Virus genome (UHGV): UHGV-0021788
Reading direction: 5' to 3' (one strand)
From: a virus
DNA length: 64,000 bases
Shown: positions 2,383 to 63,392 of the stretch, in pieces
How the letters are laid out: each line of letters begins with the position of its first letter
How positions within the stretch are numbered: position 1 is the first letter of the stretch
Notes under the pieces: model-generated
The model's database searches: none
What the model saw: only the letters and a program-made list of their open reading frames with translations
Told to the model about the DNA's origin: nothing
Translations under genes and position numbers: made by a program

Positions 2383-2396
2383 AGGAGTTGGATATA

Positions 2397-3670
2397 TTGG
2401 AAACTATTAAGAAAAGTGCATTTCAAGAAATTGGTATTCTTAATGATAATGATTATTTTGATATAGTTACTAATACAAATGTTAATAGAAGAATTAAATT
2501 TTCAGCAATGAAAGAAGCTATAAATAATAGTGTTAATTCTTATGTCGATGTTAAAGCAAAAAATGGAAAAATTTTCAGATTAACTGTTAATAATGAAGGG
2601 GAAATAATTTGTCAAAATGCTGAAGCATATACTGCTACTGCTCCAGAAAAAACTGAAAGTGGTAGATTTGCTGGTTTAATGATAAACATGATATATGGTG
2701 GTGGAAATAATAAAAATAATACTGCTTGTTCACATCACTTTATAGAATTATATAATCAAAGTACTAGTAGTATGGATTTAAATTTAAAAGGACTTTATTT
2801 ATCTGTTAAAAGTAATACAGGTGATTGGCAATCTCTTGCATTAGAGGGTATAATACCTTATCAACATTCATTCCTTGTAAGATGTAATCAAGTTTCTAAT
2901 CCTGTACTATTAGGTACTAGATGTAAAATAGATACATATGACCAAGAATGGAATATAGATTTAACTGATGTAGGATTTAGTGCTTATTTATCAATAGGAA
3001 CACCTACAACTGTTAATCCAGCTAATGCAGATGGTAATATGAATAAAGAAGTTGGATATATAGACTTAATGGGTGCTGGTGGAACACAAGAAACACAAGG
3101 AGTTAAAGCTTTTGAAACTGCCTATCCAATGTTGATGACTAAAGATATAGGTTGTAGAAGACTTGACTTTGCTGATACAGATAATAATCAAAAAAACTGT
3201 AGAGCAATAAATTGGAAAACTTGTGATGTAAGTGTCTATAAACCTAGAAGTGTATCAGATGGTAAATGGGACTTATACTTTAACAAAGCAAAACTAAAAT
3301 CTACAATGCCTAATCTAATAAATATGTGTTATGGACAAGATGGTTCTAAAACTAGAACATTTACTTTCCAAACTGTATTAACTGATGAAGGTTATATTAA
3401 ATGGAGAAAATACGGAGAATTAAAATGGAATAAAAAACCTACTACTAAAGAAATAATAACTCACTATGATTGTGATGCTACTTTACATAGAGTTTTTATT
3501 ACTGATTTACAACCTGGAATTTATGAATATCAATGTGGTTCTGAAGGTGCATGGAGTGATATAAGTACTTTTGAAGTAAGAAATTATGCACAAACTGCTG
3601 ATAAAAGTAATTTTGTACATAACGATATAAAAATGTTATGGACTACAGACCAACAAGCATGGACTAACAT
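2397..3670 (+). CDS. Exon 1 of a split purple-acid-phosphatase-like metallophosphatase. It has a ~370-aa N-terminal domain plus a PAP N-terminal-like domain. Probable start is TTG 2397; the listed ORF is 2388..3674.
   Basis: C-terminal ITHYDCDATLHRVFITDLQPGIYEYQCGSEGAWSDISTFEV matches the PAP N-domain pattern. The ORF stops at 3674 just before motif I. The catalytic half lies downstream past a HEG. RBS AGGAG is 9 nt before TTG 2397. Confidence 0.45.
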
Positions 3671-3845
3671 ATAGTCCCTATATTAAGTGATTAGTATAGT
3701 AAATCCTTTGAATTGCTGGTAAATCCTAAAGCCTTATAAACTACAACATGATTAGAAATAATGAGTGTGAATGTTACGAAAGTAGAAAAAATTATAAGGA
3801 TAACATATGGTTAAATCCTAAGTGTTATATACAATGGAAGCTCAG

Positions 3846-3930
3846 CAGGTAAGATTCTAAATTAAATTATTTTAAATACTTGACTTTTAATAAGATAAAT
3901 TGTATAATATAAGTAAAGTGAGGTGATAAA
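3846..3930 (+). repeat. 85-nt HEG promoter/leader block, duplicated at 5984-6069.
   Basis: CAGCAGGTAAGATTCTAAATTAAATTATTTTAAATACTTGACTTTTAATAAGATAAATTGTATAATATAAGTA.AGTGAGGTGATAAA is near-identical in both. Confidence 0.85.
3880..3908 (+). promoter_or_regulatory. Consensus sigma-A-type promoter for the intron-1 HEG.
   Basis: TTGACT, 17 nt, TATAAT. Followed by ATAAGTAAAG and RBS GAGGTGA. Confidence 0.75.
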
Positions 3931-4845
3931 ATGGGAAGAAAGAAAACACATGAGGAATTTATGAAAGAGTTTTATGAAAAAAATCCTAATGCTAAAAATA
4001 TAGAAATATTAGGAAAATATGAAGGTAGAAAAGTAAAAATTTTATGTATGTGTAAAATAGATAACTATAAATGGCATACAACTCCTAATGGATTATTGGG
4101 AAGTAAAAATATTAAACCAAATGGATGTCCGAAATGTGCTGGAAAAATAAAAAAAACACATAAACAATTTATAGAAGAAATGAATGAAATAAATCCAAAT
4201 ATTAAAATATTGGGGCGTTACATAGATGCTAAAACTAAGATAGAATGTGAATGTAAAATAGATGGATATAAATGGGAAGTTGAACCAACTAATTTGCTAC
4301 AGAAAAGAGGATGTCCAAAATGTGCTAATAAAATACCTAGAGAACATGATGATTTTGTTAAAGAATTAAATAACATCAATCCTAATATAAAAATAATAGG
4401 TAAATTTATATCTACTAGAACTAAAATAGAATGTGAATGTAAAATAGATGGATATAAATGGGAAGCTGAGCCAAGACATCTTTTAGGAAATCATGGATGT
4501 CCAAAATGTAATGATTCTATTGGAGAAAAAATAACTTATAATATATTAAATAAATTAAATATAAAAAATATAAGACAATACAAATTTAAAGATTGTAAAT
4601 TTTATAAATGTCTTCCTTTTGATTTTTATTTGCCACAATATAATTGTTGTATTGAAATTGATGGTAAGCAACATGAGAATATAGTCAAATGGTTTGGTGG
4701 GTTAGATGGTTTTATAGATAGAAAAATTAGAGATACGGTTAAAGATATATATTGTAAGAATAATGGAATAAAATTAATTAGAATTACATATAAAGATATA
4801 AATGAAATAGAAAAAATAATTTGTCAAGAACTTAATTTAAATTAA
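3931..4845 (+). CDS. Intron-encoded homing endonuclease, family A. Three tandem ~60-aa zinc-ribbon modules (C-C...GCPKC) plus a C-terminal Vsr-like/DUF559 PD-(D/E)xK (EDxHD-type) nuclease core.
   Basis: Repeats THEEF..NPNIKILG..C.CKIDGYKW..GCPKC x3. C-terminus has FDFYLP...IEIDGKQHE...RDTVKD..GIKLIRI. Own promoter and RBS. Paralog of 6070..6984. Confidence 0.6.
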   Translation: MGRKKTHEEFMKEFYEKNPNAKNIEILGKYEGRKVKILCMCKIDNYKWHTTPNGLLGSKNIKPNGCPKCAGKIKKTHKQFIEEMNEINPNIKILGRYIDAKTKIECECKIDGYKWEVEPTNLLQKRGCPKCANKIPREHDDFVKELNNINPNIKIIGKFISTRTKIECECKIDGYKWEAEPRHLLGNHGCPKCNDSIGEKITYNILNKLNIKNIRQYKFKDCKFYKCLPFDFYLPQYNCCIEIDGKQHENIVKWFGGLDGFIDRKIRDTVKDIYCKNNGIKLIRITYKDINEIEKIICQELNLN

Positions 4846-5005
4846 TTTAATATGAATAAACTTCAACGACTAAGTATCCTAGTAGTCTAGGTAGTGGAGG
4901 ATACCCTTATTGGGTAATGATATAGTCTGCTCTCATGGGAAACCATGAGCAGTTTTTATGTAAAAAAACGGATAGAATAGTAACGATATTCTATTGAACA
5001 TAAGG

Positions 5006-5844
5006 TGTTGAGGAATCACAAGCTACTAATGTTTGTTTCCAAAATATAAGTGAATGGGAAAAAGGTACTGATTTTGATTTTCATTTAAATACAGGCGACA
5101 TTTCGCAAAATGCAAACAGAAGTTTTGAGTGGAGATACCACTATAAATATGCAGATGACCTAATAAGAACTATGTGTCATCAAATAACTTGTGGGAATAA
5201 TGACTTAATAGATAAGAAATATTCAGATGCATTTACATGGTACATGACACCAGAAGATTATTTCTTACCAGACCAAATAGATAGTGGTTCAGGTGTTATG
5301 GTTAATAATCCTAATAAATGTACTTTTAATTCATGTCATAGTTTTGACTTAGGATATGTACATTTTGTTTGTTTAAATAGTAATAAAGATTATTCTATGT
5401 TTAATGAAAATGAAGGTGAAAAAATAGATGATTGGATACAAAGAGAATGTGCATGGTTAGATGCAGATTTAACTAGAGATGAATCTAATGCTAAAACAAG
5501 ATGGGTAATATGTTATATGCATTACGCACCTTTTACAGTATCTAGACCTGACTGGATACAAAGATTTGTTCCTGTATTTGAAAAACATAGAGTACATTTA
5601 GTATTATGTGGTCACAACCATACAAACTCAAGAAGTATTGTAGTTAGAAGTGGTTATGATGGAGACCCAAATAAAGCAAGCTATGACCCTAAAGGTCAAA
5701 AAACAGCTGAAGAAGAAACAGCTTTAGGACATGGTACTATAAATCATAATGAAGATTTAAAAAATGGTACTCTTTACCTAATGATTAATGCAACTGGATT
5801 CAAGAATACAGGTAAAGAAAGTATACAAAATCCTTATCCTTGGT
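5006..5844 (+). CDS. Exon 2 of the split metallophosphatase, the catalytic core. Frame 3 is open from 5004; the listed Met-ORF is 5172..5846.
   Basis: GDISQNAN (GDLSY-like), VICYMHYAP, LVLCGHNHT (GHxH) and LYLMINATG align to PAP motifs. In-frame sequence without an ATG extends upstream to 5004. Confidence 0.5.
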
Positions 5845-6017
5845 AAAAAAATATTGCCACTTTACATAGTAATATGTAATGACAAACTCATTGAATTGCT
5901 GGGACGACCTTAGAGCCTTAATGCCACAATATAAGAGAAATCATTATATGAAGGTTTAAAAAGTTTAAGGATTGGTTAATCAGCAGGTAAGATTCTAAAT
6001 TAAATTATTTTAAATAC

Positions 6018-6046
6018 TTGACTTTTAATAAGATAAATTGTATAAT
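6018..6046 (+). promoter_or_regulatory. Consensus promoter for the intron-2 HEG.
   Basis: TTGACT, 17 nt, TATAAT. The 85-nt block is near-identical to 3846-3930. Confidence 0.75.
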
Positions 6047-6069
6047 ATAAGTAGAGTGAGGTGATAAAT

Positions 6070-6984
6070 ATGGGTAAAAAGAAAACACATGAGGAATTTA
6101 TGAAAGAGTTTTATGAAAAAAATCCTAATGCTAAAAATATAGAAATATTAGGAAAATATGAAGGAAACAATAAACCTATTAAATGTCGTTGCAGAATAGA
6201 TGAATACGAATGGTATCCAAGACCTTGTCATTTATTGGGAAATAAAAATGCTAAACCTACTGGTTGTCCTAAGTGTAGTGGAAAAGCAAAAAGAACAAAT
6301 GAAGAGTTTATTAAGGAAATATATATAATAAACCCTAATATAGAAATACTTAGTGAATATAGTGGAGTTAGTAATTTAATAGATTGTCGTTGTAAAATAG
6401 ATGATTATGAGTGGTCATCAATTGCTGATAATTTATTACATGGACATGGTTGTCCTAAATGTGGAGGACAAATAAAAAAGGAACATGAAGAGTTTGTAAA
6501 AGAAATGGAAGAAATAAATCCCAATATAGAAATACTTGGGGAATACAATGGAGTTCATGAATATATTTTATGTGGATGTAAAATATGTAATCATGAATGG
6601 ACAACTCGTCCTCATGAATTATTAAATGAATACGGATGTCCTTCTTGTAATATATCTCGAGGAGAATTTAAAATAAAAACTTTATTAGAAAAATATCAAA
6701 AACAATATAAATATCAATATAAATTTAAAGATTGTAAATTTTATAATGAATTACCTTTTGATTTTTATTTACCTGATTATAATATTGCAATAGAATATGA
6801 TGGAGAACAGCATTATAAAATAATTAAACAATTTGGTGGAATAAATAGATTAATAGATAGTAAAATAAGGGATACTGTTAAAACTGAATATTGTAAAAAT
6901 AATAACATAAAACTTATAAGAATACCTTATTGGAATTATAAAGATATAGAAAATATACTTATAAAAGAACTTAATTTAAAATAA
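6070..6984 (+). CDS. Intron-encoded homing endonuclease, family A paralog (zinc-ribbon x3 plus Vsr-like/DUF559 nuclease). Start ATG 6070; the listed GTG 6061 is unlikely.
   Basis: MGKKKTHEEFMKEFYEKNPNAKNIEILGKYEG is identical to the N-terminus of the 3931 paralog. C-terminus has DFYLPDYNIAIEYDGEQH...RDTVK...IKLIRI. Confidence 0.6.
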   Translation: MGKKKTHEEFMKEFYEKNPNAKNIEILGKYEGNNKPIKCRCRIDEYEWYPRPCHLLGNKNAKPTGCPKCSGKAKRTNEEFIKEIYIINPNIEILSEYSGVSNLIDCRCKIDDYEWSSIADNLLHGHGCPKCGGQIKKEHEEFVKEMEEINPNIEILGEYNGVHEYILCGCKICNHEWTTRPHELLNEYGCPSCNISRGEFKIKTLLEKYQKQYKYQYKFKDCKFYNELPFDFYLPDYNIAIEYDGEQHYKIIKQFGGINRLIDSKIRDTVKTEYCKNNNIKLIRIPYWNYKDIENILIKELNLK

Positions 6985-7140
6985 TTTAACATGAATAAAC
7001 TTCAACGACTATCCTGTAATGGAGTAGGGTTCAAGCGAACTCGAAGTAGTGAGCATCTTAATAAAGATGAAGATATAGTCTAGTCTCATGGGAAACCATG
7101 AGCAGTTTTTGTGCGTAAAAACAAAACGGGTTAGGTGTAG

Positions 7141-7376
7141 CGAACCTAATTGAATATAACGGGTATGGATTAAGAACTTCACATCCAACACAACCAACTT
7201 ATGCAACATTAACTATAGGTTGGGATAAGATAGAATATAAATGCTATAAGATAATGAACACATTAAGTAAAGATAGAAACGGAAATACAATAGTAGTGCC
7301 TTATGGTAGTCAAACTAAAGAATTGTATGATAGTTGTACTCTTAATTGGAGAGCAAAAGGTCAAACACTAATATAG
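7141..7376 (+). CDS. Exon 3 (C-terminus) of the split metallophosphatase.
   Basis: Frame 3 is open 7119-7376. NLIEYNGYGLRTSHPTQPTYATLTIGW..DRNGNTIV aligns to the PAP C-terminal FGHG...W.RN.DG. A U at 5844 and G at 7140 give an in-frame join (..NPYPW-S-NLIEY..). Confidence 0.45.
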
Positions 7377-7389
7377 GTGGTGATAGTTT

Positions 7390-40880: not shown

Positions 40881-41559
40881 CTACTTTTATTCTTTTTTTA
40901 TTATCTAAAATTAAACATCCTTTATCTGTTATTGCATAATTTAAAGTTTGCTTAAAAGAGCAATCTAAAAATCTATTAAATTCTCTAAATAATTCTTCAT
41001 GATTTTCTTCATTGTAATGGACGAATAAGTTAACTATATCTATTAACCCTATTCCTTCATATTTCATTGGTATTGCATTTGTCATTACTACATAATATTC
41101 TAATAAGCATAATGCCCCAGCTGACTCCCCTATTAAAATTTTGTTATCCAATTGTTTTATTGTATCTAATAATTTATATTTCTTTAACATCATCATTAGC
41201 ATATCCATAGAACCACCAGTAAAATATATTACATCTGACGTATTTATTAGCCATTTAATAAGGTTTAAATTGTCCAAAGGAGTAATTACATTAAAATCTT
41301 TAATCCCATACTCTCTAAAGTGTTTATTATGTTTATTATAGAATTTACCATTATATTGTAAATCAGTTTGATTTTTAAATAAATATTCTAAATCACAAGC
41401 AAATGGAATACATACTACTCTTGAATTAGGTTTTATATATTCCTTAACTTTATTATAACATTGTTTATCTTCTAAGTAATCAGCATTAGATAATAATATA
41501 TATTTATTCATATCAACCACCACCCTTTTAATATATTTGTCTGAAGAATTGTAAATCAT
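40864..41559 (-). CDS. Peptidase S51 (dipeptidase E/cyanophycinase-like) family protein.
   Basis: FTGGSMDMLM ... ILIGESAGALCL (the GGN..L / G.SAG signature). Confidence 0.5.
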   Translation of the reverse strand: MIYNSSDKYIKRVVVDMNKYILLSNADYLEDKQCYNKVKEYIKPNSRVVCIPFACDLEYLFKNQTDLQYNGKFYNKHNKHFREYGIKDFNVITPLDNLNLIKWLINTSDVIYFTGGSMDMLMMMLKKYKLLDTIKQLDNKILIGESAGALCLLEYYVVMTNAIPMKYEGIGLIDIVNLFVHYNEENHEELFREFNRFLDCSFKQTLNYAITDKGCLILDNKKRIKVGEIYG

Positions 41560-42979
41560 TATTTTTTATTTTATAAATTTTATTATGTCTCCAATTTATA
41601 TATTTCCATATTAATTTAGTTCCATCTTCTAATTTTCCAGCTGATTTACTTCTGCCTTTACAACAAGATGTTACACCACTTGGACTTTTAATATTATAGA
41701 AATTACAAGCATCAGTTATTGTATAAAATAATTTACCAGTGGTAATACATATAACTCCTCTTGAACAATAATTATCTTTTCCTTTTTTCTTTAAATTTCC
41801 AATTCTTTTACTTTCTTCTTTTGTATAATCGCATTTATTACATTTCACTCCTTGTTTCAAATAGCTTCTAACCGTAGACCTATTTAAATCAAGTATATTA
41901 CTTATTTTATTAATATCATGTTCTCCATTGTTCCATAATTCCCATGTTTTAACACACAAACTATTCTGAGTTTTTTTCCATGCTAATTCCCAATTAATAT
42001 CAGACAAATTAAATAAATTTGATAATTTCTTAGTTACATTTTCTTTTAACCATTCTAAAGTTGAATATCTACAATCTATTACTATATAATTATCTACATG
42101 AACTTTAGCACATTTATATTTAAATAAATCATTCATTTGTTCTTGGAATAAATTTCTTTTAGTTAAACTGCATTCTTCATAATGTTGTATCCCATTTATT
42201 TCTATTATCATATTATATTTTTTAATATAAAAATCATATTTGAAATATCCACACCATTTAAAATCTGATTTATTTAATTGTGTTTGAAAATCTACGTTAA
42301 GTTGTTTTAATATGTTTATCATAAATTTTTCAGGAATTGAAATGCCATCTGAACAAAAATTACAAGAATATCCTCTATTAACAATAAATTGTAAAACTAT
42401 TTTATTTTCACTTACTAAATTACAATCCAAACACTTAAAATAATATTTTTTATGACTAAAAGGTGCTATACTATAGCAATCTTCAAAGGTTAAATCATTT
42501 TCTTTTATAGCAATCATTCTGGCTATTTGAGGATATTTATATGCTAAACTATCTCTCCAATGAGTTCTATTAGTACTGCAATACCCACATTTACTTCCAT
42601 TATAAAAATTATTACACTTCATTTTATATCCTATTTTATTTCCTTCTCTATCATAATTATGATAATCGTGTTCTTGACAATATAACCATATAATAGTTCT
42701 GCTACTTTTAGATGTTTCATAGGGATTAATGCCTAATTCATTATTTTTCTCCCAATTCCAAATATCATCTAAATTTAATCCTAGTTTATTTTCTATATAG
42801 TAACCAATACTATTTTTTAACGGGTGTTTAATATCTCCGTTTTTAAAATTTTTATAATGCTTTTTATAAGCTATAGTACCATCTTCAAATTGTATATCTA
42901 TATCTTCATATTTTCTATAATTTATTACAGTCATTTTTTCGCCTTGTTTATTGTATTTTATTTCTCCTTCTCTATTCAT
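41528..42979 (-). CDS. Family B homing-endonuclease-like protein. Its C-terminal ~70-aa DNA-binding module is shared with the GIY-YIG gene 39321.
   Basis: YDFYIKKYNMIIEINGIQHYE core. C-terminus VICITTGKLF...GVTSCCKG...GKLEDGTKLIWKYINWRHNKIYKIK. Confidence 0.5.
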   Translation of the reverse strand: MNREGEIKYNKQGEKMTVINYRKYEDIDIQFEDGTIAYKKHYKNFKNGDIKHPLKNSIGYYIENKLGLNLDDIWNWEKNNELGINPYETSKSSRTIIWLYCQEHDYHNYDREGNKIGYKMKCNNFYNGSKCGYCSTNRTHWRDSLAYKYPQIARMIAIKENDLTFEDCYSIAPFSHKKYYFKCLDCNLVSENKIVLQFIVNRGYSCNFCSDGISIPEKFMINILKQLNVDFQTQLNKSDFKWCGYFKYDFYIKKYNMIIEINGIQHYEECSLTKRNLFQEQMNDLFKYKCAKVHVDNYIVIDCRYSTLEWLKENVTKKLSNLFNLSDINWELAWKKTQNSLCVKTWELWNNGEHDINKISNILDLNRSTVRSYLKQGVKCNKCDYTKEESKRIGNLKKKGKDNYCSRGVICITTGKLFYTITDACNFYNIKSPSGVTSCCKGRSKSAGKLEDGTKLIWKYINWRHNKIYKIKNNDLQFFRQIY

Positions 42980-43214: not shown

Positions 43215-45121
43215 TTATATAAAAAATATACTATTATCTTTATCAGCACAAATTATTTTAGTAGTTTTATTTGATTTTCTAAGTTCTTCTTCCATCTTAT
43301 CTCTAAATTTATATTTACTATCATCACTATGATGTATAACAATTAAATTAGTATTAATACCTTTCATCATTTTGATTATTTCTTCTCCTTGTATATGAGA
43401 AGACCATGTATTATATCTTATAACTTTAGCTTTCTTTTTAAATGACATATTTTCAATTTTAACTTCTTTAGTATTATCTTTTAATAATAATCCTCCTACT
43501 GTCGTTGGAGCACAATAGCCAATTATCATTATAGTATAATTACTATCTTCTATATTTGCTTTTAAATGATTCAATATTCTACCTATATTACACATACCAG
43601 CAGATGATATTACAATTTTTTGTTGTTCTTTATTAAGTGCTAAATTCATAGATGATTCAAAATCTTTTACAAAATGAAGTTTTTCCCATGATAATATTTT
43701 TTCAAACATATCTTTATCTTCTTTGTTTAATATTTGTTTATAAACATCATTGATTTCCAAAGAAAGTTTACCATCTAAGAATATAGGAGTTTTAAAATTT
43801 GGGTCATTAGAAAAAGTATTATATAAGTAATATAATAAATCTTGAGTTCTAGCTTGAGCAAAAGCTGGTATTAAAATTGAATGACCTTGTTTTAATTCGT
43901 TGATTATATCATCTTTCATTTTCTTTCTTTCTTTTTCGATATCTTTTGCATTAAATCCTCTTGATAAATCTGAATAAGTTGCTTCTGTTATTACTAAATT
44001 AGCATTTGATATAGTTTTAGTTTTTTTACGGAATGGTTGTTGATTATTGAAACTACCTGTATCTCCACTATAATATATTTTTTTTGTAACTCCACTTGGC
44101 ATTTTAAAGAATAATTCTATTGAAGTTGCTCCTACTATATGGTTATTTGGCAAAAGTCTAAAGCTAACATATTCATTTAACTCATGTATAACATCTTCTT
44201 CATAAGTAGAAGTTTTTGATAACATTCTATATACATCGCTTTCAGTATAAAGAGGTTCTACCTTATATCCTTGATTACTCATTTGTCTACAATTTCTTTG
44301 TAATATATAAGCACCATCTATCAATAAAGGTTCAGATAATTCTTTATTCTCATAACCCATAATAAATTTATCTACATTATCTACTATAGCTGGTAGATTT
44401 CCTATATGGTCTAGTGATTTCAAAGATGTGAATGAGATACAAAACAAGCTTTTATTTGACCACATTCACAAACTTTTTCAACCACCCCCTTATTAACTAC
44501 ATATTCTTCTCTTAAAGCACCATTCATTTGAACCATACCACATTCAATAAGAACTTTTTCATAGTCTCCTTCTTTTGTTGGATATGATAAGAGTATAGAA
44601 GTTCCAACAACTCCATTATGGCTTTCGCCTACGAATTCAACTATTACTTTATTTTTATTTTTCTTACTTATAATATATGGATTCTTTTTCTTCTTTTTCT
44701 TTTTCTTGATTACATTGAGATTTTCTTTTCTGCAATCCAAAAAATCACCATTTATAAATTCTATTTTATTATCATTTCCTAGTATATAATTTTGTAAAGT
44801 TGTATTTTTGCCTAACACATCTCCAATAATACAAGAATGTTTTTTATTCCATCTTACATTTTTACATGTTTTTACATCATCTAAATCTATTAATACTCTT
44901 TCTTCAAGTTCTTCTTGAAATAAAGTATCATATAATACAATTTCAGCATAATCTTTATGTATTATTATTTCATTATTGTCAAATTCTGTTACAGGACTAT
45001 CTGATATACAAAAACCATATTTCCTATATTCATCCCAATGTTTTTTACAAAGTCCATTTTTATTTTTTTTGCTTAATAATTTTCCACATTGGCTACAGTG
45101 TTTTTTATTATCTTTATCCAT
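43215..45121 (-). pseudogene. Metallo-beta-lactamase / beta-CASP nuclease (RNase J/Artemis-like) with an N-terminal zinc finger. It is split into two ORFs (44420..45121 and 43215..44465) by a frameshift exactly at the HxHxDH motif.
   Basis: ORF1 ends ..ACFVSHSHL*. ORF2 starts in another frame with ..SLDHIGNLP. Downstream beta-CASP motifs ITEATY and IVIHHSD. Confidence 0.55.
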
Positions 45122-46242: not shown

Positions 46243-47775
46243 TTATTTATTTGCTTTTCTATATTCATATTCTTCTTTATTTAATTCTTCTACTTCTTCT
46301 TCATTAAGTAAATGATATTCATCACACCATATTTCAAACTCTCCATTTTGTACCCATTTTGTTTTAGTTATTGTATTTCCATCTTTGTCTATTGTTTCAA
46401 CTTCTTTTTTTTCTTTTTTTGCCTTTTGAAACATATGGTATACATTGATTACACTAAATGCTTTAAATGGTTGTGCTTCATAAATTCCTTCACCAACTTT
46501 TATTTCTATGTTTTTTCCAGTACTTATATTAAAAATCCATGCTTTTTTATTCTTAAATTTGGTTATAACATCAATAACGATACAAGTTGATGAATCATAA
46601 TCTTCAAAATAATAATTACATTCTCCAGTCATTTCAAGATTAATTTTAACCTTATCTATTGATGGCATTTCGTTATCTTCTATATTCAACATTAATTCAT
46701 TACATAATTCTAATGCTTTTTCTACTTTATATTGTTTATATTTATCTTCTTTACTTTTTTCAGTTGCATATTTTTCTATTATTTCTTTAGGATATGGTAG
46801 GTCAGCTTTATTAAATGATACTTCACCTTTCTTAGATTTTAATTTTTTACTCATTATTTTTTCATATAAATCTATAATATCTAATAATTTTTGTGATTTA
46901 CCAAATTCATCGAAGAAATCTATTGCTATTAATATATTAAGTTGTCTTGAGTTTATAGATGTTTTATCATTTAAATCAATAAGTAAATCCATAAAACTAT
47001 TATATTTATTATCTTTTAACATATATAATTCTTGTGATACTTGTTCATTCATATATTTTATACTAGCCATACCTTTATATATAGAATTACTTTCTTTATC
47101 CATAAAATATTCAGCTTTAGAATATCTAAATTTAGGTGGTAATAATTTTATATCAAAATAACTTAATTCTTTTATTAGTCTATTTGTTCTAGTTGAATCA
47201 TCGGAATAAATAGATAGGGCAACTGTATAATATTCAAGAGGATAATGTGATTTTAAAAATGCTCCATACAGACTATCATAGGCATAAGAAAGTGAATGTG
47301 AAGCATTGAATGAATATTTTGAAGCATCATTAACTACTTGCCATGTTTCTTCAAATCCATCAATTGAACCAACTTTATCTATCCAACCTTTTTTTAATTT
47401 TTTTTCTAACTCTATTAATTCTTTTTCTTTAAATTTTTTCTTTGATATTTTTTTAATAATTCCATATGTTTCAGGCTCAGGAATACCTAACCATATTAAA
47501 TATTTCATAATAGATTCTTGATACATCAAATAATGATAACTATCTTCTAACAAATTATCCAATTCTTTTACACCTGTTGTATATGGTTTTCTTTCTATAA
47601 AATTATCTAATAAAGAAGCAAATCCTGGTCTAATTGAAGCAACAAACGCACTCATTTCAGCTACACTAGAAACTTTATATCTTGATGCTAAATTAGTTGC
47701 AAAATCTGAATCAGATTGATTTATTGTACAAGTTATTTTATCTTCATATATTTTAAATGTTTTTTCATCTAACAT
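46243..47775 (-). CDS. dnaE: DNA polymerase III alpha subunit (DnaE-type), C-terminal exon. It may extend a few codons upstream of the Met.
   Basis: FNASHSLSYAYDSLYGAFLKSHYP matches DnaE FNKSH..Y....AYLK.HYP. Confidence 0.7.
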   Translation of the reverse strand: MLDEKTFKIYEDKITCTINQSDSDFATNLASRYKVSSVAEMSAFVASIRPGFASLLDNFIERKPYTTGVKELDNLLEDSYHYLMYQESIMKYLIWLGIPEPETYGIIKKISKKKFKEKELIELEKKLKKGWIDKVGSIDGFEETWQVVNDASKYSFNASHSLSYAYDSLYGAFLKSHYPLEYYTVALSIYSDDSTRTNRLIKELSYFDIKLLPPKFRYSKAEYFMDKESNSIYKGMASIKYMNEQVSQELYMLKDNKYNSFMDLLIDLNDKTSINSRQLNILIAIDFFDEFGKSQKLLDIIDLYEKIMSKKLKSKKGEVSFNKADLPYPKEIIEKYATEKSKEDKYKQYKVEKALELCNELMLNIEDNEMPSIDKVKINLEMTGECNYYFEDYDSSTCIVIDVITKFKNKKAWIFNISTGKNIEIKVGEGIYEAQPFKAFSVINVYHMFQKAKKEKKEVETIDKDGNTITKTKWVQNGEFEIWCDEYHLLNEEEVEELNKEEYEYRKANK

Positions 47776-48197
47776 TTTTTCTAATTCTTTAATAGTCGGT
47801 ATTTTAATATTAGCTAATTCACAAGTTTTTCTTATTAATGTCCAAACTGTAACCGCAAGATACGTTAATACCGTTCCTTTCGGAATACTTTAACACCCAT
47901 TTAAGGGTCGGACTAGACTATACCTTTATCTTCGACATTACTCGTTAAGATATGCCTATTATAGTCGTTGAAGGTTTCCCATTTTAAAGGGATTTCCCTG
48001 CTGATTATCCATTCATTCGCCCTTAGCGCCTTTTACAAGGCTTTTATTTCAGCTTAGGTAATCCTTATAATTTTTTCTGCTTTCGCAACCATCAAGCTTA
48101 ATGTCACCATTTACTTTGTGGTTTATAAGGCTTTAGGAACTCCCAGCAATTTAAGGCATCATAATCTACATAATTTCTTATATAGACGACTATTAAA
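47776..48197 (-). ncRNA. HEG-less group I intron splitting dnaE. It is homologous to +strand introns 1 and 2. Boundaries are approximate.
   Basis: On the - strand: AAUUGCUGGGAGUUCCUAAAGCCUUAUAAAC block (= intron 1 block). GCGAAAGCAGAAAAAAUUAUAAGGAUUA. P7 CAACGACUAUAAU and GGUAUAGUCUAGUCC. UUCCGAAAGGAA GNRA hairpin. Locally higher GC. Confidence 0.6.
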
Positions 48198-51173
48198 TTA
48201 ATCATTCTTTAGATATTTATAAACATCACAATTATAACCATCTAAATTACAACATATTCCTTCTTTAGTTTTTATTAAACCAATTTCTTCTGAAACATTT
48301 TTATCATATAATAACATTGAACAAGGTGATTCTGATATACTTTCTACTACTCCTTTAAATACTTTTGAATCTTTTATTATTTTTCCCCAATATTCATCAT
48401 TTTCATATTGTTCTAAATTTTTAGCTATTTCATCATATTTACTAACATGCATATCATTTGCCTTACACCATAGTCTAAAAGCAGATGAATCTTGTAAAGG
48501 TTTATATGATAAAATCCAAGCACAATTTTCTTCGCCTAATAAATCTTTAGTTGCTTGTATAAATACTGAACGGTCTTCTGTATTTAAATCTACATCAGGC
48601 AATGAACGTGTACCTAATATACGTTCTATACTCATAAATCTAGTTGGATACAATGGAACTGGTGCAGACAATCTATCTATTTCTGTTAAACCTAATAATT
48701 TATTTATAATAAAACTTACAGCTGAATTATGAACTATCATATTATTAAGTAAATAACTATGCTCATTTTCAACTTCTATATCATATACTGTGGTTTTTTG
48801 TTTAGGTAATATAATGATTTCCTTAATAGGAAGATAATAGTAATTATTATCCTCGAAAGTTCTTTCATTTTTTTTCTGTGAATAATTAGAATTTTTATTT
48901 AATCTTAATTTATAAGATTCTTTACATAAATACCCTTCTTTCATTTTATGTTCTTTTCTTACGCTTAAACTATTTACTCCTTCATCCGTCATTAAACATA
49001 ATAATTTATATGCGTTTATTAAAGATTTTGAAGTATTATCGAAATTGATTCTATATTCACAAAAGCTTCCATCTGATAATCTTAATCCTTTTACTATACC
49101 TAATAAATTTTCTTTTGATTGATTAAACCATTTTTCATTAAATATTTTATCTTTTCCTTTTTTAGATTCAAATAATTCCTGTTTAACAAAATTACAAAAT
49201 ACTGTAGAATTAATATATAGTTGACTTAATTTTTTAGTTTTACTTACATTTTCATATATAGATTTATTTAATTTAGATGCTATATTATAAAATATTTCTC
49301 TATTATATTTATCTTTTTCAGTAGTATTGTTTATGGCTAATCCAACACTGGTTTTTTTAGAAGTAAATCCGTCGCCATACATTAATCCTATAAATATATT
49401 AAATTCTTTATCTATTTCAATATATCTTTCTAATTTTGAAAATTGTTTAGATTTAACATATTTAGAATATTCTTCTTGGGTATTAAAAGGTATATAATCC
49501 ATTAAAGCTTTATATTTATCTTTTTTCCTATTAAAACAATTTTTTTTCATATTTGCAAAATTTTCTACTAATGACTTACCAACACCTATTTTTCTTGCAA
49601 CATCACTAGGAGAATATTTATAAATAGTATTAGTTTTTTCATATATATATTTATCATCAAAATCAAATCCGTTGATATTATAATCATTTAAATCAATTAT
49701 CTTATTTAAACTATCCGTAACATTTATTTTAGGTACACATACATAATCTGTTTTCACTATATCTTTTGCTTGTATCCATTTTAATGTATTATTTCTGTTT
49801 ATAAGTATTTTATGGTCTAAAGTACATACAGTTGGATAATATTTATCAGTACCATAGATATGTTTAATTTGAACTAATTCTTCTTCTATATCATATTTTG
49901 CAGTGTTAATTACCTTATTAAAATTTCCACTTTCTGTAATTACATAATCACCTATTTTAACATCCTTTATAGATTTTAAAGAATTTTTTGTATGAACTAA
50001 AGCATCTTCAGTAAAACATCCTCTTCCAGTCTTAGTTAATAAACCATTATATTTATTTATTGCTCTTTGACATATTTTATAATCTAATATAAAATAATCT
50101 TCCATGTGTGTTTTTTCGATTATATTAAATTCATATTTTATAGCATCTAAATACTCATTCCATCTTTCTTTAGGTATCGTATCTCTTATTTCCACCCATC
50201 TTTTATTAATTATATCTTTTAATTCTTTATTTGGATTATCAGATATTGATGGCATTTTAATTTCTTTATCCAATATAATATTTTCACATTCGTCAAAAAT
50301 TAAAGTATTATTAATTGCGACTTTTATTTGTTCTTCATTTAATACATTTTGTTTATTATATCTTTCTATTATAGTTTCTACATTAGGATAATCTAATATA
50401 AAATTTGTTTCTTCTTTATATATAATACCTTTTGCTTTAAGAAATAATTCTCTATAAATATAATCTTGTGGATTAATATAATGAGAATCATTACCATGAA
50501 TGATATTAATATTATATTTTTCACTTAAACATATAATTTTTCTATTAAGATTTTTTTGTATATCTTCATTATGGTTTTGAACTTCTAAATAAAAATTATC
50601 ACCAAAATACTCTTTCATTTTTATAATCCAATCATCTAAGCCTTCATCATTTCTTAAACGACCAGCAACACAAGCTGTTGTTATGATTACATTGTTTGGA
50701 TTAACACTAAATAATAATTCATCATCTATTCTATTTTTATAATATACTCCATCTATATTGCTATAGGATAATATTCTATTTAGGTCTCTATATCCATCTT
50801 TGTTTTTTGCTATTATAACTAAGTGATAATTAGAGTTATCTTTTTCTTTTCTATCTTTAACATAATATACTTCTGCACCAACTACCATTTTAATACCTTT
50901 GTATGATTTATCACAAACATCTTTATATTGACATTTTTCACAATTATGTTTAGTATATTCATTATTTTCTTGAGTAAGTTTCACACATACTTCGCTACAT
51001 AGAGTATGTGCTTCATATACATTACCTTGATAACCATGTTCAGTAGTAAAATATATTGCATCTTTACCATCTAATTCAATTGCTCTAACTATATATTCTA
51101 TTGGTTTAGCGACTACATCTAAACTTTTAATATTACTATATATTTTATGTGAATGATAATTATTACATCTCAT
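48198..51173 (-). CDS. dnaE: DNA polymerase III alpha subunit, N-terminal exon (PHP domain plus palm). It contains an intein.
   Basis: N-terminal PHP His motifs. ..GLLTKTGRG / SAVSFIINKLLGLTEIDRL is contiguous DnaE sequence once the intein is removed. Confidence 0.7.
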   Translation of the reverse strand: MRCNNYHSHKIYSNIKSLDVVAKPIEYIVRAIELDGKDAIYFTTEHGYQGNVYEAHTLCSEVCVKLTQENNEYTKHNCEKCQYKDVCDKSYKGIKMVVGAEVYYVKDRKEKDNSNYHLVIIAKNKDGYRDLNRILSYSNIDGVYYKNRIDDELLFSVNPNNVIITTACVAGRLRNDEGLDDWIIKMKEYFGDNFYLEVQNHNEDIQKNLNRKIICLSEKYNINIIHGNDSHYINPQDYIYRELFLKAKGIIYKEETNFILDYPNVETIIERYNKQNVLNEEQIKVAINNTLIFDECENIILDKEIKMPSISDNPNKELKDIINKRWVEIRDTIPKERWNEYLDAIKYEFNIIEKTHMEDYFILDYKICQRAINKYNGLLTKTGRGCFTEDALVHTKNSLKSIKDVKIGDYVITESGNFNKVINTAKYDIEEELVQIKHIYGTDKYYPTVCTLDHKILINRNNTLKWIQAKDIVKTDYVCVPKINVTDSLNKIIDLNDYNINGFDFDDKYIYEKTNTIYKYSPSDVARKIGVGKSLVENFANMKKNCFNRKKDKYKALMDYIPFNTQEEYSKYVKSKQFSKLERYIEIDKEFNIFIGLMYGDGFTSKKTSVGLAINNTTEKDKYNREIFYNIASKLNKSIYENVSKTKKLSQLYINSTVFCNFVKQELFESKKGKDKIFNEKWFNQSKENLLGIVKGLRLSDGSFCEYRINFDNTSKSLINAYKLLCLMTDEGVNSLSVRKEHKMKEGYLCKESYKLRLNKNSNYSQKKNERTFEDNNYYYLPIKEIIILPKQKTTVYDIEVENEHSYLLNNMIVHNSAVSFIINKLLGLTEIDRLSAPVPLYPTRFMSIERILGTRSLPDVDLNTEDRSVFIQATKDLLGEENCAWILSYKPLQDSSAFRLWCKANDMHVSKYDEIAKNLEQYENDEYWGKIIKDSKVFKGVVESISESPCSMLLYDKNVSEEIGLIKTKEGICCNLDGYNCDVYKYLKND
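48726..50018 (-). mobile_element. Intein (431 aa) with a LAGLIDADG homing endonuclease domain, inserted at the DnaE GRG/S site.
   Basis: Begins CFTEDALV after GRG. Two LAGLIDADG motifs (IGLMYGDGF, LGIVKGLRLSDGSF). Ends VHN followed by extein Ser. Confidence 0.8.
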
Positions 51174-51757: not shown

Positions 51758-53554
51758 TTAAAATGGTACATTTTTATCTTTTTTCTTTTTATCTTTATCA
51801 ATATGAGTTTTTGCACTTTTTATTTCAAAACATGGTTGTTTTTTATAATTATCCCAACCAATTGATACTACCATTTCATCTATTATTATATCGGGTCTTC
51901 CAAATACACCTTTCATTTCTTCTTCACATAAAAAGTCTTCTTTAAATACCCTAGAGCAAAATTCTTTTTTAAATGTTATACCGTCTATATTAAATGTTAA
52001 TAATGTTGGATATGGATTCTTTATATTCGCAGGTTTAATTTTTAAATCCTTTAATAAGAAGGTCGGCTTAGGACAAAACGTAAACCATAATGGTTTTAAA
52101 TCAACTATTTCATTCATTTGTTTAAATGATATATCATCTAAATCTATTACACAATCTATATTAATTGCTACATCTTCTACTTCTACATCTTCCATAACTT
52201 TATCAATTCTCTTTTTCACTCTTCTTATATTACTATAATCTGTTTCTACACCAGCAGAACCATTATGTCCTTTTACTGTAAGTATTTCTGTTGATTCAAG
52301 AATTGATTTAAAATCATCTATACCATAAGTTCTCATACTACCTATTAATCTATCTTTTTTAGGTGAAACAGATAATAATACTACAGGTTTTTTATATATG
52401 TCAATTAAATTGGTGGCTATTAATCCAGTTATTCTTTTATCAACTAATTTTCTTTCTTCATCTATTATTGTTAAAACTTTACTATCATTACAATTATTTT
52501 CTTCTATATATTTCTCACAAAGTTTTATGCATTCTTTTTTCTTTTTATCTTGCTTTTGCTTAACACTTTTAGCAATTCTAACCATATGTTGTTGTAATGT
52601 TTCTATTTGAACTTGTGGGTTAGGATTATTTTTAGATTTTCTAGGTTTATATTCAAACTCTTCTTCTTCTCCTATTAATGCTTTAAATAATAATTCACAT
52701 TCTTCCATACTACCAAATCTTATAGTTCCATTTATAATATTAGCTAAATTAAACGATATTGTTTCAGGTGTTATATCATCTAAATCAAAATCTTTTAATA
52801 TTTCTTTAAAAAATTCATTTCTTATATTATTTAAACCTTTATGAACTAAGTATGCAACTTCTTTATCATGTATATCCATTATATCAGCTATACAACCAAT
52901 TGCAACTAAATCCAAATAATGTTCTAACTCATTCTCAGTCATTCCGACTAGGAACTTATAAACAACTCCTACACCACTTAAATTATGTGAATATTCATCC
53001 AACTGATTATTGACAATAACTCCAATAAGAGCATTACTTGTATCTCTAAATACTGTTTTAAAATCTTCACCATTAGACTGCGGAATATGGTGGTCAACGA
53101 CTAAAATTCTTTTTCCCATTGTCAACAACTCTTTAATTTCCTTAAAATCATTAGTAGAGGCATCAGGTATTATCAAAAATTCTACACTAGATTTTTTTAT
53201 TCGTTTAAAAACTTTTGGGTCAAGTCCATGAAATTTTCCATCATGAAAAAATAAAGTTATCTTTTCTTTAGGAATTTGACATTCATTAATTAAAAACAAA
53301 TACATTAAAGCAGAACTAGTATATCCATCTACATCGGTATCAACTAAGATACCGATGTCACTTCCTTTATCAAGTTCACTTATGAATAATTCTATTCCTT
53401 TGTCTACATTTTTTATTTTAAATGGCATTTCTTGATATTCAGATGTAGGATTAAGTAAAAAATCCACATCTTTTTCAGTCAATTCTCTATTTTTTAATAC
53501 TATATCTCTTAATGTTCTACCGAAGGTGTTTTCTGTTTTTATATTATATTTCAT
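51758..53554 (-). CDS. RecJ-like DHH-family single-strand exonuclease.
   Basis: DHH motifs GILVDTDVDGYTSS, LVVDHHIP. DHHA1-like GHNGSAGVE. Confidence 0.6.
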   Translation of the reverse strand: MKYNIKTENTFGRTLRDIVLKNRELTEKDVDFLLNPTSEYQEMPFKIKNVDKGIELFISELDKGSDIGILVDTDVDGYTSSALMYLFLINECQIPKEKITLFFHDGKFHGLDPKVFKRIKKSSVEFLIIPDASTNDFKEIKELLTMGKRILVVDHHIPQSNGEDFKTVFRDTSNALIGVIVNNQLDEYSHNLSGVGVVYKFLVGMTENELEHYLDLVAIGCIADIMDIHDKEVAYLVHKGLNNIRNEFFKEILKDFDLDDITPETISFNLANIINGTIRFGSMEECELLFKALIGEEEEFEYKPRKSKNNPNPQVQIETLQQHMVRIAKSVKQKQDKKKKECIKLCEKYIEENNCNDSKVLTIIDEERKLVDKRITGLIATNLIDIYKKPVVLLSVSPKKDRLIGSMRTYGIDDFKSILESTEILTVKGHNGSAGVETDYSNIRRVKKRIDKVMEDVEVEDVAINIDCVIDLDDISFKQMNEIVDLKPLWFTFCPKPTFLLKDLKIKPANIKNPYPTLLTFNIDGITFKKEFCSRVFKEDFLCEEEMKGVFGRPDIIIDEMVVSIGWDNYKKQPCFEIKSAKTHIDKDKKKKDKNVPF

Positions 53555-63233: not shown

Positions 63234-63392
63234 CTACTTCTGTAGCAGGTTTCAATGCTTGTTACAAGCTTCCCTATTCAACGTGTTCTCTTTCGTTTTA
63301 AACTACTTGAGTTTTTTACAACACTCCAAGGGCGTAAATTCGGACTTGAACGTTCCTACATATTAATTTGTTTTTATTTCTTATTTACTTAA

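Follow-up and report, generated by a model that had tools for sequence, protein, structure and literature searches.

A DnaE polymerase gene of a large uncultured phage that appears to harbor both a group I intron and an intein within catalytic motifs

Inteins have been catalogued 116 times in the bacterial Pol III alpha subunit (DnaE), at insertion points designated a to g (Novikova et al. 2016, PMC4760082), with a hot spot in a 75-residue stretch of the fingers and with split inteins occupying the commonest site (PMC4760082). Group I introns of Herelleviridae phages (phiEF17H, Twort-like phages, Silviavirus) are short and self-splicing, with or without homing endonuclease genes (HEGs), and repeated independent HEG invasions have been reported for B. 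cereus-group introns (PMC2504315). In phage nrd, a group I intron and an intein can be sheltered by one and the same gene. A literature search found no published description of a group I intron in phage dnaE. Here, we describe a dnaE locus in a 64-kb window (the whole stretch of DNA that was analyzed), which we consider very likely to be one polymerase gene of a large uncultured phage, colonized by two independent homing elements that are both spliced out.

The gene lies on the minus strand as two open reading frames, ORF1 (48198..51173, 991 aa) and ORF2 (46243..47775, 510 aa), with a 422-nt gap (47776-48197) between them, as an earlier note on this DNA had described. ORF1 matches the Pfam models PHP, Intein_splicing, and DNA_pol3_alpha, and ORF2 matches DNA_pol3_finger and HHH_6; together, 46243-51173 reads as one Pol III alpha gene of the DnaE type, interrupted twice. 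Without both inserts, the protein aligns in one piece to the intact DnaE of the Clostridioides difficile phages phiCD211, phiCDIF1296T, and AR1086-1 (59.8% identity) and to that of phage c-st. This comparison with intein-free DnaE, which the earlier note had proposed as a check, is ungapped at both junctions: TKTGRG/SAVSF at the intein (phiCD211, TKTGRG/SAPSF) and KYLKND/YLAVTVW at the intron (phiCD211, KYLKND/YLTVKVW). The predicted mature product, spliced and intein-free, has 1099 aa rather than the approximately 1070 aa first estimated.

Exon 1 is divided by the intein. Its part a (50019..51173, minus strand, codons 1-385) covers the PHP domain (Pfam PHP, residues 6-201) and the N-terminal palm, ends in ...LLTKTGRG, and is ungapped against phiCD211 and c-st DnaE up to that point. 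Part b (48201..48725, minus strand, mature residues 386-560), placed by the Pfam DNA_pol3_alpha match and the junction alignments, runs from SAVSFIINKLLG to YKYLKND and includes the PDVD catalytic motif; its terminal K-N-D falls on K553-F554-D555 in an alignment to E. coli DnaE (2hnh), making its last residue the equivalent of D555. Exon 2 (46243..47862, minus strand, 539 codons plus stop) is open from 47862, where YLAVTVWTLIRK aligns with phiCD211 YLTVKVWSLIRK, and continues through the finger, HhH, and C-terminal domains (Pfam DNA_pol3_finger, HHH_6). The annotated ORF2 start (ATG at 47775) is 29 codons into this exon, and the final 87 nt of the gap (47776-47862) are exon-2 coding, specifying YLAVTVW...ELEK. 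In E. coli numbering from the 2hnh alignment, the intein separates Gly363 from Ser364 in the GRGS motif, and the intron follows immediately upon the D555 codon, 175 codons away in one ORF. Catalytic roles of G363/S364 and D555 in Pol III alpha are well established, and both insertion sites lie within active-site motifs of the polymerase. Neighboring genes form a phage replication module (RecJ-like, DnaB-like, RNR, methyltransferase).

The RNA insert is assigned from its sequence as a HEG-less group I intron of 338 nt without an ORF (47863..48200, minus strand), in agreement with the earlier note as to type; the note had equated it with the full 422-nt gap, and protein alignment sets the narrower limits. 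Intron bases 1-3 are the UAA stop of ORF1, and the last base is a terminal G at 47863. Rfam model RF00028 matches with 65.3 bits (E 4e-16; gathering threshold, 50 bits) when a 1-kb slice is searched, the match being missed in whole-window scans as an effect of the speed filter. GC content is raised to 35.5%, compared with 23-27% in the flanking exons and 26.1% in the window. The sequence itself shows P1 and the terminal G: exon AUGAU and intron UA pair with UAGUCGU, with U.G as the pair that marks the 5' splice site. The other helices are P2, the P3/P7 pseudoknot, P4, P5 extended by ~120 nt, a short P6 (UCCCUUUAAAAUGGGA), P8 as the single hairpin between P3' and P7', and P9 hairpins. The P7 strands quoted in the note indeed pair (GACUAUA/UAUAGUC), and the GNRA hairpin it mentioned corresponds to GAAA loops on P2, one P5-extension hairpin, and one P9 hairpin. 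The minimum free energy has a z-score of -3.5, and 89 pairs are 98.2% paired across the intron alignment. Compensatory changes occur at 20 pairs, with L038 and L078, both diverged, contributing most of them; shuffles give 5.0 +/- 2.0 (0 of 500 reach 20) and slid controls 0-2. The changes are located in P2, P3, P4, P5, the P5 extension, P8, and P9, and the outcome repeats with a recJ-gene copy of the intron included. Such compensatory substitutions point to selection on the fold.

The earlier note also held that the dnaE intron shares a 5' block with two plus-strand introns, as one family spread over both strands and several genes, with and without HEGs. The quoted blocks, at 48121-48151 and 48059-48086 in the gap, recur in plus-strand intron 1, the first at 3711-3741 without mismatches and the second at 3776-3803 with 3, where shuffled sequence is expected to give 0 matches; intron 2 has no match within 3 mismatches. 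Intron 1 (plus strand, tentative limits 3673..5004) interrupts a metallophosphoesterase gene whose exon pieces are spanned by an alignment to phage G gp352. Homology to the dnaE intron lies in the 5' half of intron 1, at about 3683-3871 (nhmmer E 3.8e-17; blastn E 1e-18, 74.5% over 149 nt), and its 3' part scores 26.2 bits against RF00028, under the threshold. Intron 2 of the same gene (plus strand, tentative limits 5845..7161, inferred from the gp352 alignment) is weakly similar (nhmmer E 0.0024 in its 5' half, 0.037 in its 3' half). A 6-kb Rfam search over both plus-strand introns (2500-8500) returned nothing, again a speed-filter effect. Each carries a HEG in P6, of 304 aa (3931..4845; zinc fingers and a putative restriction-endonuclease-like nuclease domain) in intron 1 and 307 aa (6061..6984) in intron 2, and unlike the dnaE intron both contain one more hairpin, placed between P7 and P3'. 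The homology is modular, strong for the 5' half of intron 1 only, with 3' halves of different architecture. The single-family claim stands in substance, since the same dnaE site holds a HEG in P6 in other phages and a ribozyme of this family also interrupts a recJ-like gene at its DHH motif (locus L078), where the HEG is in the P9 region rather than P6; it needs refining for the modularity and for the faint similarity of intron 2.

Further afield, the dnaE intron matches 201 phage records. Enterococcus phage phiEF17H has an unannotated match (74% over 293 nt) between two ORFs called 'putative ribonucleotide reductase' (193 and 192), and many Staphylococcus phages (Twort-like, Silviavirus) match at 66-69% over about 250-290 nt, in Romulus just downstream of a short ORF with a capsid protein annotation. 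Related introns interrupt nrd in an Enterococcus phage and capsid genes in Staphylococcus phages.

The second insert is an intein of 431 aa (48726..50018, minus strand; ORF1 residues 386-816; Pfam Intein_splicing, 62.1 bits), whose limits are exactly those first proposed. Cys1, block B TLDH (intein residues 66-69), block F VYDIEVE (411-417), and His-Asn (430-431) followed by extein Ser+1 are all present. The two LAGLIDADG blocks were likewise correctly recognized: motif 1, GLMYGDG (49368..49388, minus strand; residues 211-217), aligns with FLGYLIADG of the TliVMA intein (7qsu), has Asp216 as its acidic residue, and includes Y214, G215, and G217 that are invariant among intein homologs; motif 2, GLRLSDGS (49065..49088, minus strand; residues 311-318), aligns with the second motif of 7qsu, with acidic Asp316 and Gly317 invariant. 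An AlphaFold model (pLDDT 87.7) retrieves PI-TkoII (2cw7, E 1.7e-14), TliVMA (7qsu), PI-SceI, PI-PfuI, and I-DmoI in Foldseek, at 11-15% identity to solved inteins. Searches with phmmer give a weak match (E 6.8e-4), and the Pfam LAGLIDADG models give none at E <= 1. The intein combines a Hint splicing domain with a predicted double-LAGLIDADG endonuclease, the latter assigned from the motifs, the phmmer match, and the modeled fold. Relatives of the intein number 26 metagenomic proteins; most are phage-like DnaEs in which this site holds a full-size intein or a mini-intein.

Related loci come from human gut samples, on IMG/VR contigs of 198-204 kb. Among isolates, phiCD211-like phages of C. difficile are nearest, and the closest bacterial-genome matches (66-73% identical) are in C. 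difficile, Terrisporobacter, and Bacilli and Anaeroplasma MAGs. Among phages with 95-99% identical exons, all four combinations of intein presence or absence and intron with or without a LAGLIDADG HEG in P6 occur. The window and L003-5 have the intein and a HEG-less intron, L013 the intein (99.8% identical to that of the window) and a HEG-containing intron (1164 nt), and the intein-free loci L016 and L068, with exons 95-97% identical in nucleotide sequence, a HEG-containing and a HEG-less intron, respectively; L006, L007, and ~55 others lack both elements. L036 also has an intein at the same GRG/S site, and L038 (DnaE 54-64% identical) a diverged HEG-containing intron at the same dnaE site. 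The HEG encodes 264 aa (Pfam LAGLIDADG_3, 30.6 bits) and is absent from the 64-kb window. On sequence grounds, the window intron appears to be an allele of the HEG-containing intron of these sister phages.

For expression, we propose RNA and protein splicing in succession. The gene would be transcribed as a single pre-mRNA, in which the 338-nt intron would fold around a core of P4-P6 and the P3/P7 pseudoknot, with P1 presenting the splice-site U.G and the terminal G in place. Two guanosine-initiated transesterifications would remove it, joining ...AAU GAU to UAU CUU... and taking out the in-frame UAA at the intron start. Translation would yield a 1530-aa precursor, from which the predicted class-1 intein (Cys1, TLDH, His-Asn, Ser+1) would excise itself, re-forming the GRG-S nucleotide-binding motif in the 1099-aa polymerase. 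The double-LAGLIDADG domain of the intein could cut intein-less dnaE alleles, with repair copying the intein in. Because it is without an endonuclease gene, the window intron would be unable to home alone; it could be mobilized in trans by the sister phages' HEG during co-infection, or otherwise be inherited vertically.

Could the gene instead be decaying, with one or both inserts no longer splicing and replication left to the host Pol III or a second phage polymerase? HEG loss is a step toward degeneration in the homing cycle, and one intein homolog (P0003) has Arg instead of Cys1, so that degenerate copies do exist in nature. We nevertheless regard decay as very improbable: the splicing-critical features of the intron (5' splice-site U.G, terminal G, P3/P7, P4-P6 core) and of the intein are intact, the exon frame is open with its catalytic motifs conserved, the compensatory intron substitutions speak for a fold under selection, the same interrupted allele is seen again in several independent gut metagenomes, and no second dnaE is present within the 64-kb window of the ~200-kb genome. 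More improbable still is a two-piece polymerase, with ORF1 and ORF2 translated separately across an ordinary structured intergenic region. ORF2 does have its own ATG at 47775, and naturally split DnaE is known from cyanobacteria (PMC4760082). Against this, the 29 codons before this ATG stay in frame and are conserved (YLAVTVWTLIRKTCELANIKIPTIKELEK versus phiCD211 YLTVKVWSLIRKICELANISIPTIEELNI), a clear Shine-Dalgarno-like sequence was not found ahead of it, and the break falls within the catalytic strand K-x-D-(F/Y)-L, after the Asp. The gap also bears the hallmarks of a bona fide group I intron, and sister phages have the same junction with the 1164-1165-nt HEG-containing form.

Within the preferred reading of one gene with two spliced inserts, the history of the short P6 can be read in two directions. 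We lean slightly toward its being ancestral and never invaded, with HEG-containing alleles as recent invasions, over loss of the HEG by deletion. The short form GGGAAGUCCCUUUAAAAUGGGAAACC recurs in L068 and the recJ-gene copy L078, and where the allele contains a HEG, the 15-nt hairpin gives way to a cassette of ~840 nt that is closed by a 12-13-bp stem of its own. Moreover, the HEG family at P6 of the plus-strand introns is unrelated to that of the relatives' dnaE intron, which fits repeated independent invasions. However, exon nucleotide identity defines two lineages (~99% within, ~95% between) and both intron forms occur in each, such that exchange between lineages, by recombination or homing, obscures the direction, and gene conversion from a HEG-less donor would leave an identical precise replacement.

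Like the Herelleviridae introns, which occupy conserved replication, nucleotide-metabolism, and structural genes, the dnaE intron is short and interrupts a conserved gene; it differs from them in its host gene and in its site after the Asp555-equivalent codon. The resemblance to phage nrd is that one replication or nucleotide-metabolism gene shelters both kinds of element, whose presence differs between related phages; here, in contrast, a single ORF holds the two elements 175 codons apart, both inside catalytic motifs, and every occupancy combination is found among near-identical exons. The intein resembles those of bacterial DnaE as a class-1 element in a highly conserved motif of the catalytic part of a C-family polymerase, and PI-SceI, PI-PfuI, PI-TkoII, and TliVMA in its predicted Hint and double-LAGLIDADG architecture. 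In contrast to the published hot spot in the fingers and to the split inteins of the commonest site, it sits in the GRG/S motif of the palm and is contiguous. The locus is therefore a clean new example of known biology, in which two well-known kinds of selfish element occupy two active-site motifs of one gene.

The gene for the DnaE-type DNA polymerase III alpha subunit lies on the minus strand of the window (46243-51173) and is divided between two open reading frames: ORF1 (48198..51173, 991 aa), with Pfam matches to PHP, Intein_splicing, and DNA_pol3_alpha, and ORF2 (46243..47775, 510 aa), with matches to DNA_pol3_finger and HHH_6. Between them they encode the PHP, palm (pol3_alpha), fingers, and HhH domains and the catalytic acidic residues expected of this polymerase class, with PDVD aligning to the D401/D403 region and K-N-D to K553-F554-D555 of E. 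coli DnaE (PDB: 2hnh). The ORFs are separated by 422 nt (47776-48197), the last 87 nt of which are coding sequence of exon 2. Joining position 48201 to 47862 reads ...CDVYKYLKND|YLAVTVWTLIRK..., the counterpart in the isolated phage phiCD211 being ...KYLKND|YLTVKVWSLIRK..., and the join aligns without gaps to the DnaE proteins of phiCD211 and phage c-st. In silico excision of a second insert, an intein within ORF1, yields TKTGRG|SAVSF, compared to TKTGRG|SAPSF in phiCD211.

With both inserts removed, the polymerase aligns in one piece and gap-free with the intein-free DnaE of phiCD211 and c-st, as anticipated by the earlier note, which had described dnaE as interrupted twice. It is 59.8% identical to an annotated phage DnaE. 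The precursor would be 1530 aa long and the mature polymerase 1099 aa, rather than the ~1070 aa suggested before. Two other readings of the locus were considered and rejected, namely that dnaE is a pseudogene and that the two ORFs are translated separately into two polypeptides; the ATG called as the start of ORF2 is an internal methionine. The double interruption is correct and well resolved, and from it we infer RNA splicing, protein splicing, and endonuclease activities.

By model score, core, and splice-site features, the RNA-level insert is a group I intron, predicted to be self-splicing. Its limits (47863-48200, minus strand, 338 nt) are set by protein homology, because the KYLKND junction aligns gap-free to uninterrupted DnaE, and it is therefore shorter than the 422-nt ORF gap with which it had been equated. 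It opens with UAA, the stop codon of ORF1, and its 3′ end, ...UAUUAACG, provides the terminal G. A P1 helix, with the 5′ splice site at a U.G pair, can be formed between exon AUGAU and intron GUCGU and is conserved in the diverged relative L038; a 3-bp P10 (UAU/AUA) is possible but weak. P2 with a GAAA loop, P3/P7, P4, P5 with a ~120-nt extension, P6, P8, and P9 hairpins were all found, and the minimum free energy of the intron has a z-score of −3.5. Searched as a 1-kb slice, the region matches Rfam model RF00028 over its full length (1-253) at 47895-48212 on the minus strand, with 65.3 bits (E 4e-16) against a gathering score of 50 bits. Together with the covarying core described below and a GC content of 35.5% (neighboring exons 23-27%, window 26.1%), this bears out the earlier proposal of a group I intron with raised GC in the dnaE gap.

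The intron was not reported by Rfam scans of the whole window, and a 6-kb Rfam scan over two related plus-strand insertions (2500-8500) returned nothing. Since the same dnaE intron is found in the 1-kb slice, these misses on long sequence are a speed-filter artefact and do not reflect absence of the intron. Public assemblies call dnaE as two unrelated ORFs; such calls, and the escape of the intron from whole-contig Rfam scans, make phage polymerase genes of this kind easily mis-annotated as truncated.

The intron fold is supported by covariation among the window copy and four copies that IMG/VR relatives carry at this dnaE site (L068, L013, L016, and the diverged L038). In the proposed structure, whose 89 pairs include the P3/P7 pseudoknot, 98.2% of positions are paired and compensatory changes occur at 20 pairs, a signal derived mostly from two diverged sequences. 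Column shuffles gave 5.0 ± 2.0 compensatory pairs, with 0 of 500 reaching 20, and sliding the partners by 1-3 columns left 0-2. Two to three of the compensatory pairs are in P3, while P7 is uninformative because it is invariant. Adding a further copy from a recJ-like gene (L078, discussed below) gave 96.2% paired positions and again 20 compensatory pairs, with controls at 0-1.

The second insert, at 48726-50018 on the minus strand, comprises residues 386-816 of ORF1 (431 aa) and is a class 1 intein by its motifs and by its Hint/splicing-domain profile; protein splicing is predicted. It begins with Cys1, contains TLDH (66-69) and VYDIEVE (411-417), and ends ...NNMIVHN (His-Asn 430-431), followed by Ser+1; Pfam Intein_splicing scores 62.1 bits against a cutoff of 35.8. 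The insert is missing, without an alignment gap, from phiCD211, c-st, L016, and L068, the intein-less site of L016 reading ...ACAGGAAGAGGT|TCAGCTGTAAGC....

Two candidate LAGLIDADG motifs are present, GLMYGDG (211-217, with D216) and GLRLSDGS (311-318, with D316), of which D316 and G317 are invariant among intein homologs; both motifs align with those of the TliVMA intein 7qsu (phmmer, E 6.8e-4). No Pfam LAGLIDADG family matches the intein at E ≤ 1, and the endonuclease fold was therefore addressed by structure prediction. A PDB profile search with the homolog alignment A1 was little informative on this domain, because some of the aligned homologs include the DnaE N-terminus, which dominated the matches. 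The AlphaFold model (pLDDT 87.7) retrieved, as a whole intein, PI-TkoII (E 1.7e-14), the TliVMA and PhoVMA inteins, PI-SceI, and PI-PfuI in Foldseek (E 1e-14 to 1e-8), and its predicted endonuclease part matched I-DmoI with a target-normalised TM score of 0.54-0.66 over ~180 columns. The modeled endonuclease domain thus has a LAGLIDADG fold, and motifs, splicing domain, and predicted fold all agree with the 431-aa LAGLIDADG intein at GRG/S that had been noted from the sequence.

Aligned to E. coli DnaE (PDB: 2hnh), the intein is located between G363 and S364 of PGRGSGAGS, and the intron directly behind the codon corresponding to D555 of V-K553-F554-D555-F-L-G-L. G363/S364 belong to the nucleotide-binding motif of nucleotidyltransferases, and D401, D403, and D555 are the catalytic carboxylates of Pol III alpha. 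By alignment, both elements occupy active-site motifs. Within replication genes, homing elements are expected at the codons that are most conserved, a placement that the dnaE locus matches exactly.

Comparison with related phages gives population evidence for mobility. In a tblastn search of 86 fetched loci with mature DnaE, most relatives are uninterrupted, and examples of empty sites come from relatives with 82-83% identity. The window and L003-5, gut metagenome contigs whose ORF2 protein is identical to that of the window, carry the intein and the 338-nt intron without a homing-endonuclease gene (HEG). L013 carries the intein and a 1164-nt intron with a HEG, L016 has no intein and a 1165-nt intron with a HEG, and L068 has no intein and a 337-nt intron without one. 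The exons fall into two lineages, window with L013 and L016 with L068, with ~99% nucleotide identity within and ~95% between them. The intein is confined to the lineage of the window and L013, where it is 99.8% identical, and HEG-containing and HEG-less introns are found in both lineages. Every combination of intein presence or absence with HEG presence or absence is thus represented among phages whose exons are 95-99% identical, a polymorphism at an identical site as expected of mobile (homing) elements.

In the HEG-containing introns, the extra sequence is a ~830-nt insert in P6 closed by its own 12-13-bp stem. The HEG encodes 264 aa from a TTG start, with the motifs YWLGLLLADGH and FVRGMFDGDGS and 30.6 bits on Pfam LAGLIDADG_3; it aligns with the endonuclease region of the intein (E 3e-5) and was not found within the 64-kb window. 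The dnaE gene of related phages is an insertion hot spot. In L031, L026-29, and L083, out-of-frame introns follow directly after the SLPD/SLAD codon of the PDxD catalytic motif (the D401 region). An HNH-type intein of 242 aa is inserted in frame at SFN| in L045, a further out-of-frame insert is present in L082, and L036 has an intein at GRG|S, as in the window. The L031 insert resembles the dnaE intron family in its 3′ half (E 3.4e-13) but not in its 5′ half.

The same intron family is found in unrelated genes. A metallophosphoesterase gene on the plus strand (2388-7376) is present in three exon pieces, across all of which phage G gp352 aligns, split by two group I-like insertions each containing an ORF of ~305 aa. 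These HEGs (3931..4845 and 6061..6984) encode three DUF4379 zinc fingers together with a putative restriction-endonuclease-like nuclease domain (PvuRts1I-like_N at 27.0 bits, at cutoff; DUF2726 and DUF559 below cutoff). The upstream regions of the two cassettes are nearly identical, each containing a Shine-Dalgarno sequence and a promoter-like site that is a perfect TTGACT-17-TATAAT.

Homology of the dnaE intron to these plus-strand introns had been proposed, and at the level of sequence it holds in a modular sense. Whole-intron relatives were sought by nhmmer with the intron alignment (~340 positions). The 5′ half of intron 1 is 74.5% identical to the dnaE intron over 149 nt (E 3.8e-17), while its 3′ half reaches only E 3 and intron 2 matches weakly (E 0.0024 and 0.037). 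The two sequence blocks cited in favor of homology are present in the dnaE gap and each occurs once on the plus strand, at 3711-3803 (none in shuffles), with no close counterpart in intron 2. In both plus-strand introns, the 3′ half has one more hairpin than the dnaE intron, located between P7 and P3′. With its HEG in place, the 3′ part of intron 1 scores 26.2 bits on RF00028, and the plus-strand introns were not confirmed at threshold. If intron 1 follows the pattern of the dnaE and recJ introns, its P1 would be GGACU/AGUCC; the limits of this intron are tentative because this helix has U-A instead of U.G and conflicts with the reading frame.

Independent support for one intron family in unrelated genes comes from two sources. 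L078 (IMGVR_UViG_3300045988_160472) has a 1162-nt intron (1845-3006) in a recJ-like gene, split inside DHH (..RILILD|HHMPQ..), whose near-identical copy in the window (51758..53554) is uninterrupted. Its core belongs to the dnaE intron family (nhmmer E 3.4e-54) with the same short P6, and it carries a LAGLIDADG ORF, in two pieces, in the P9 region. In addition, 201 isolated-phage records match the dnaE intron. The best, in Enterococcus phage phiEF17H (74% over 293 nt; L099 2462-2827, AP018714.1), is unannotated and located between ORF193 and ORF192, both labeled "putative ribonucleotide reductase" and probably constituting one intron-split nrd gene. Next are Staphylococcus Twort-like phages; in Romulus, a short ORF with a capsid-protein annotation lies shortly upstream of the match.

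The neighbors of dnaE are phage replication genes (RecJ-like, methyltransferase, ATPase, DnaB-like helicase, and RNR). IMG/VR relatives are contigs of 198-204 kb; among isolates, C. difficile phiCD211-like phages come closest. In a scan of a genome collection, no close match to a host emerged, bacterial genomes reaching 66-73% identity at best. In the same replication module, a 483-aa ORF at 41528-42979 (minus) matches PHROG HNH and homing-endonuclease families and may be a further free-standing homing endonuclease. At 43215-45121 (minus), the overlapping ORFs 44420..45121 and 43215..44465 match phrog_36352 consecutively (positions 5-77 and 77-474), with a run of eight Lys codons (AAA/AAG) ~80 codons upstream of the overlap and a Cys-rich motif within an N-terminal extension of ~150 residues; a frameshift, programmed or in error, or a fused mobile-element domain could account for this arrangement. 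The sole Rfam family in the whole-window scans is a RAGATH-18 RNA (RF03064) at 63270-63332 (minus), with 68.2 bits against a threshold of 44.9.

The dnaE intron and intein belong to already known kinds of element and leave current understanding unchanged. Pol III alpha inteins number 116 in the catalog, at sites a-g and mostly in the fingers (PMC4760082); the co-occurrence of intron and intein in phage nucleotide-metabolism genes is classic, as PMC2504315 cites it from Lazarevic 2001; and there is precedent for different HEG families invading similar introns (PMC2504315). Literature searches returned no group I intron in a phage dnaE and no description of this intein. The main value of the locus is in annotation and as a natural homing-cycle system: sister phages with exons 95-99% identical amount to a natural experiment, with donor and recipient alleles for both elements ready-made in one gene. 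As reagents, it offers a contiguous DnaE intein and a predicted new pair of LAGLIDADG endonucleases with defined target sites.

A broader reading, which we regard as possible though rather unlikely, is that in this phage group the ribozyme is a modular chassis that recombines halves and swaps endonuclease cargo, and that the dnaE intein lineage has also given rise to free-standing endonucleases. The chassis is suggested because, within one genome, the dnaE and structural-gene introns share the 5′ half only, and because in this core a LAGLIDADG HEG is located in P6 at dnaE and in the P9 region at recJ, its plus-strand relatives having a zinc-finger and nuclease HEG in P6. As to the intein, three free-standing proteins of 442-448 aa (P0002, P0004, and P0005; L088 1910-3253) are homologous to its whole length (43-46% identity, 99-100% coverage), with Cys1 replaced by Tyr and the terminal His-Asn missing. 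The P0002 gene directly precedes, with a 4-nt overlap, a dnaE that is uninterrupted and keeps its TGRGS site intact. Proteins of this type resemble yeast HO, an intein turned free-standing endonuclease; if this reading is true, they would be a phage counterpart of the transition from the yeast VMA1 intein to HO, in which the intein now behaves as a free-standing homing endonuclease.
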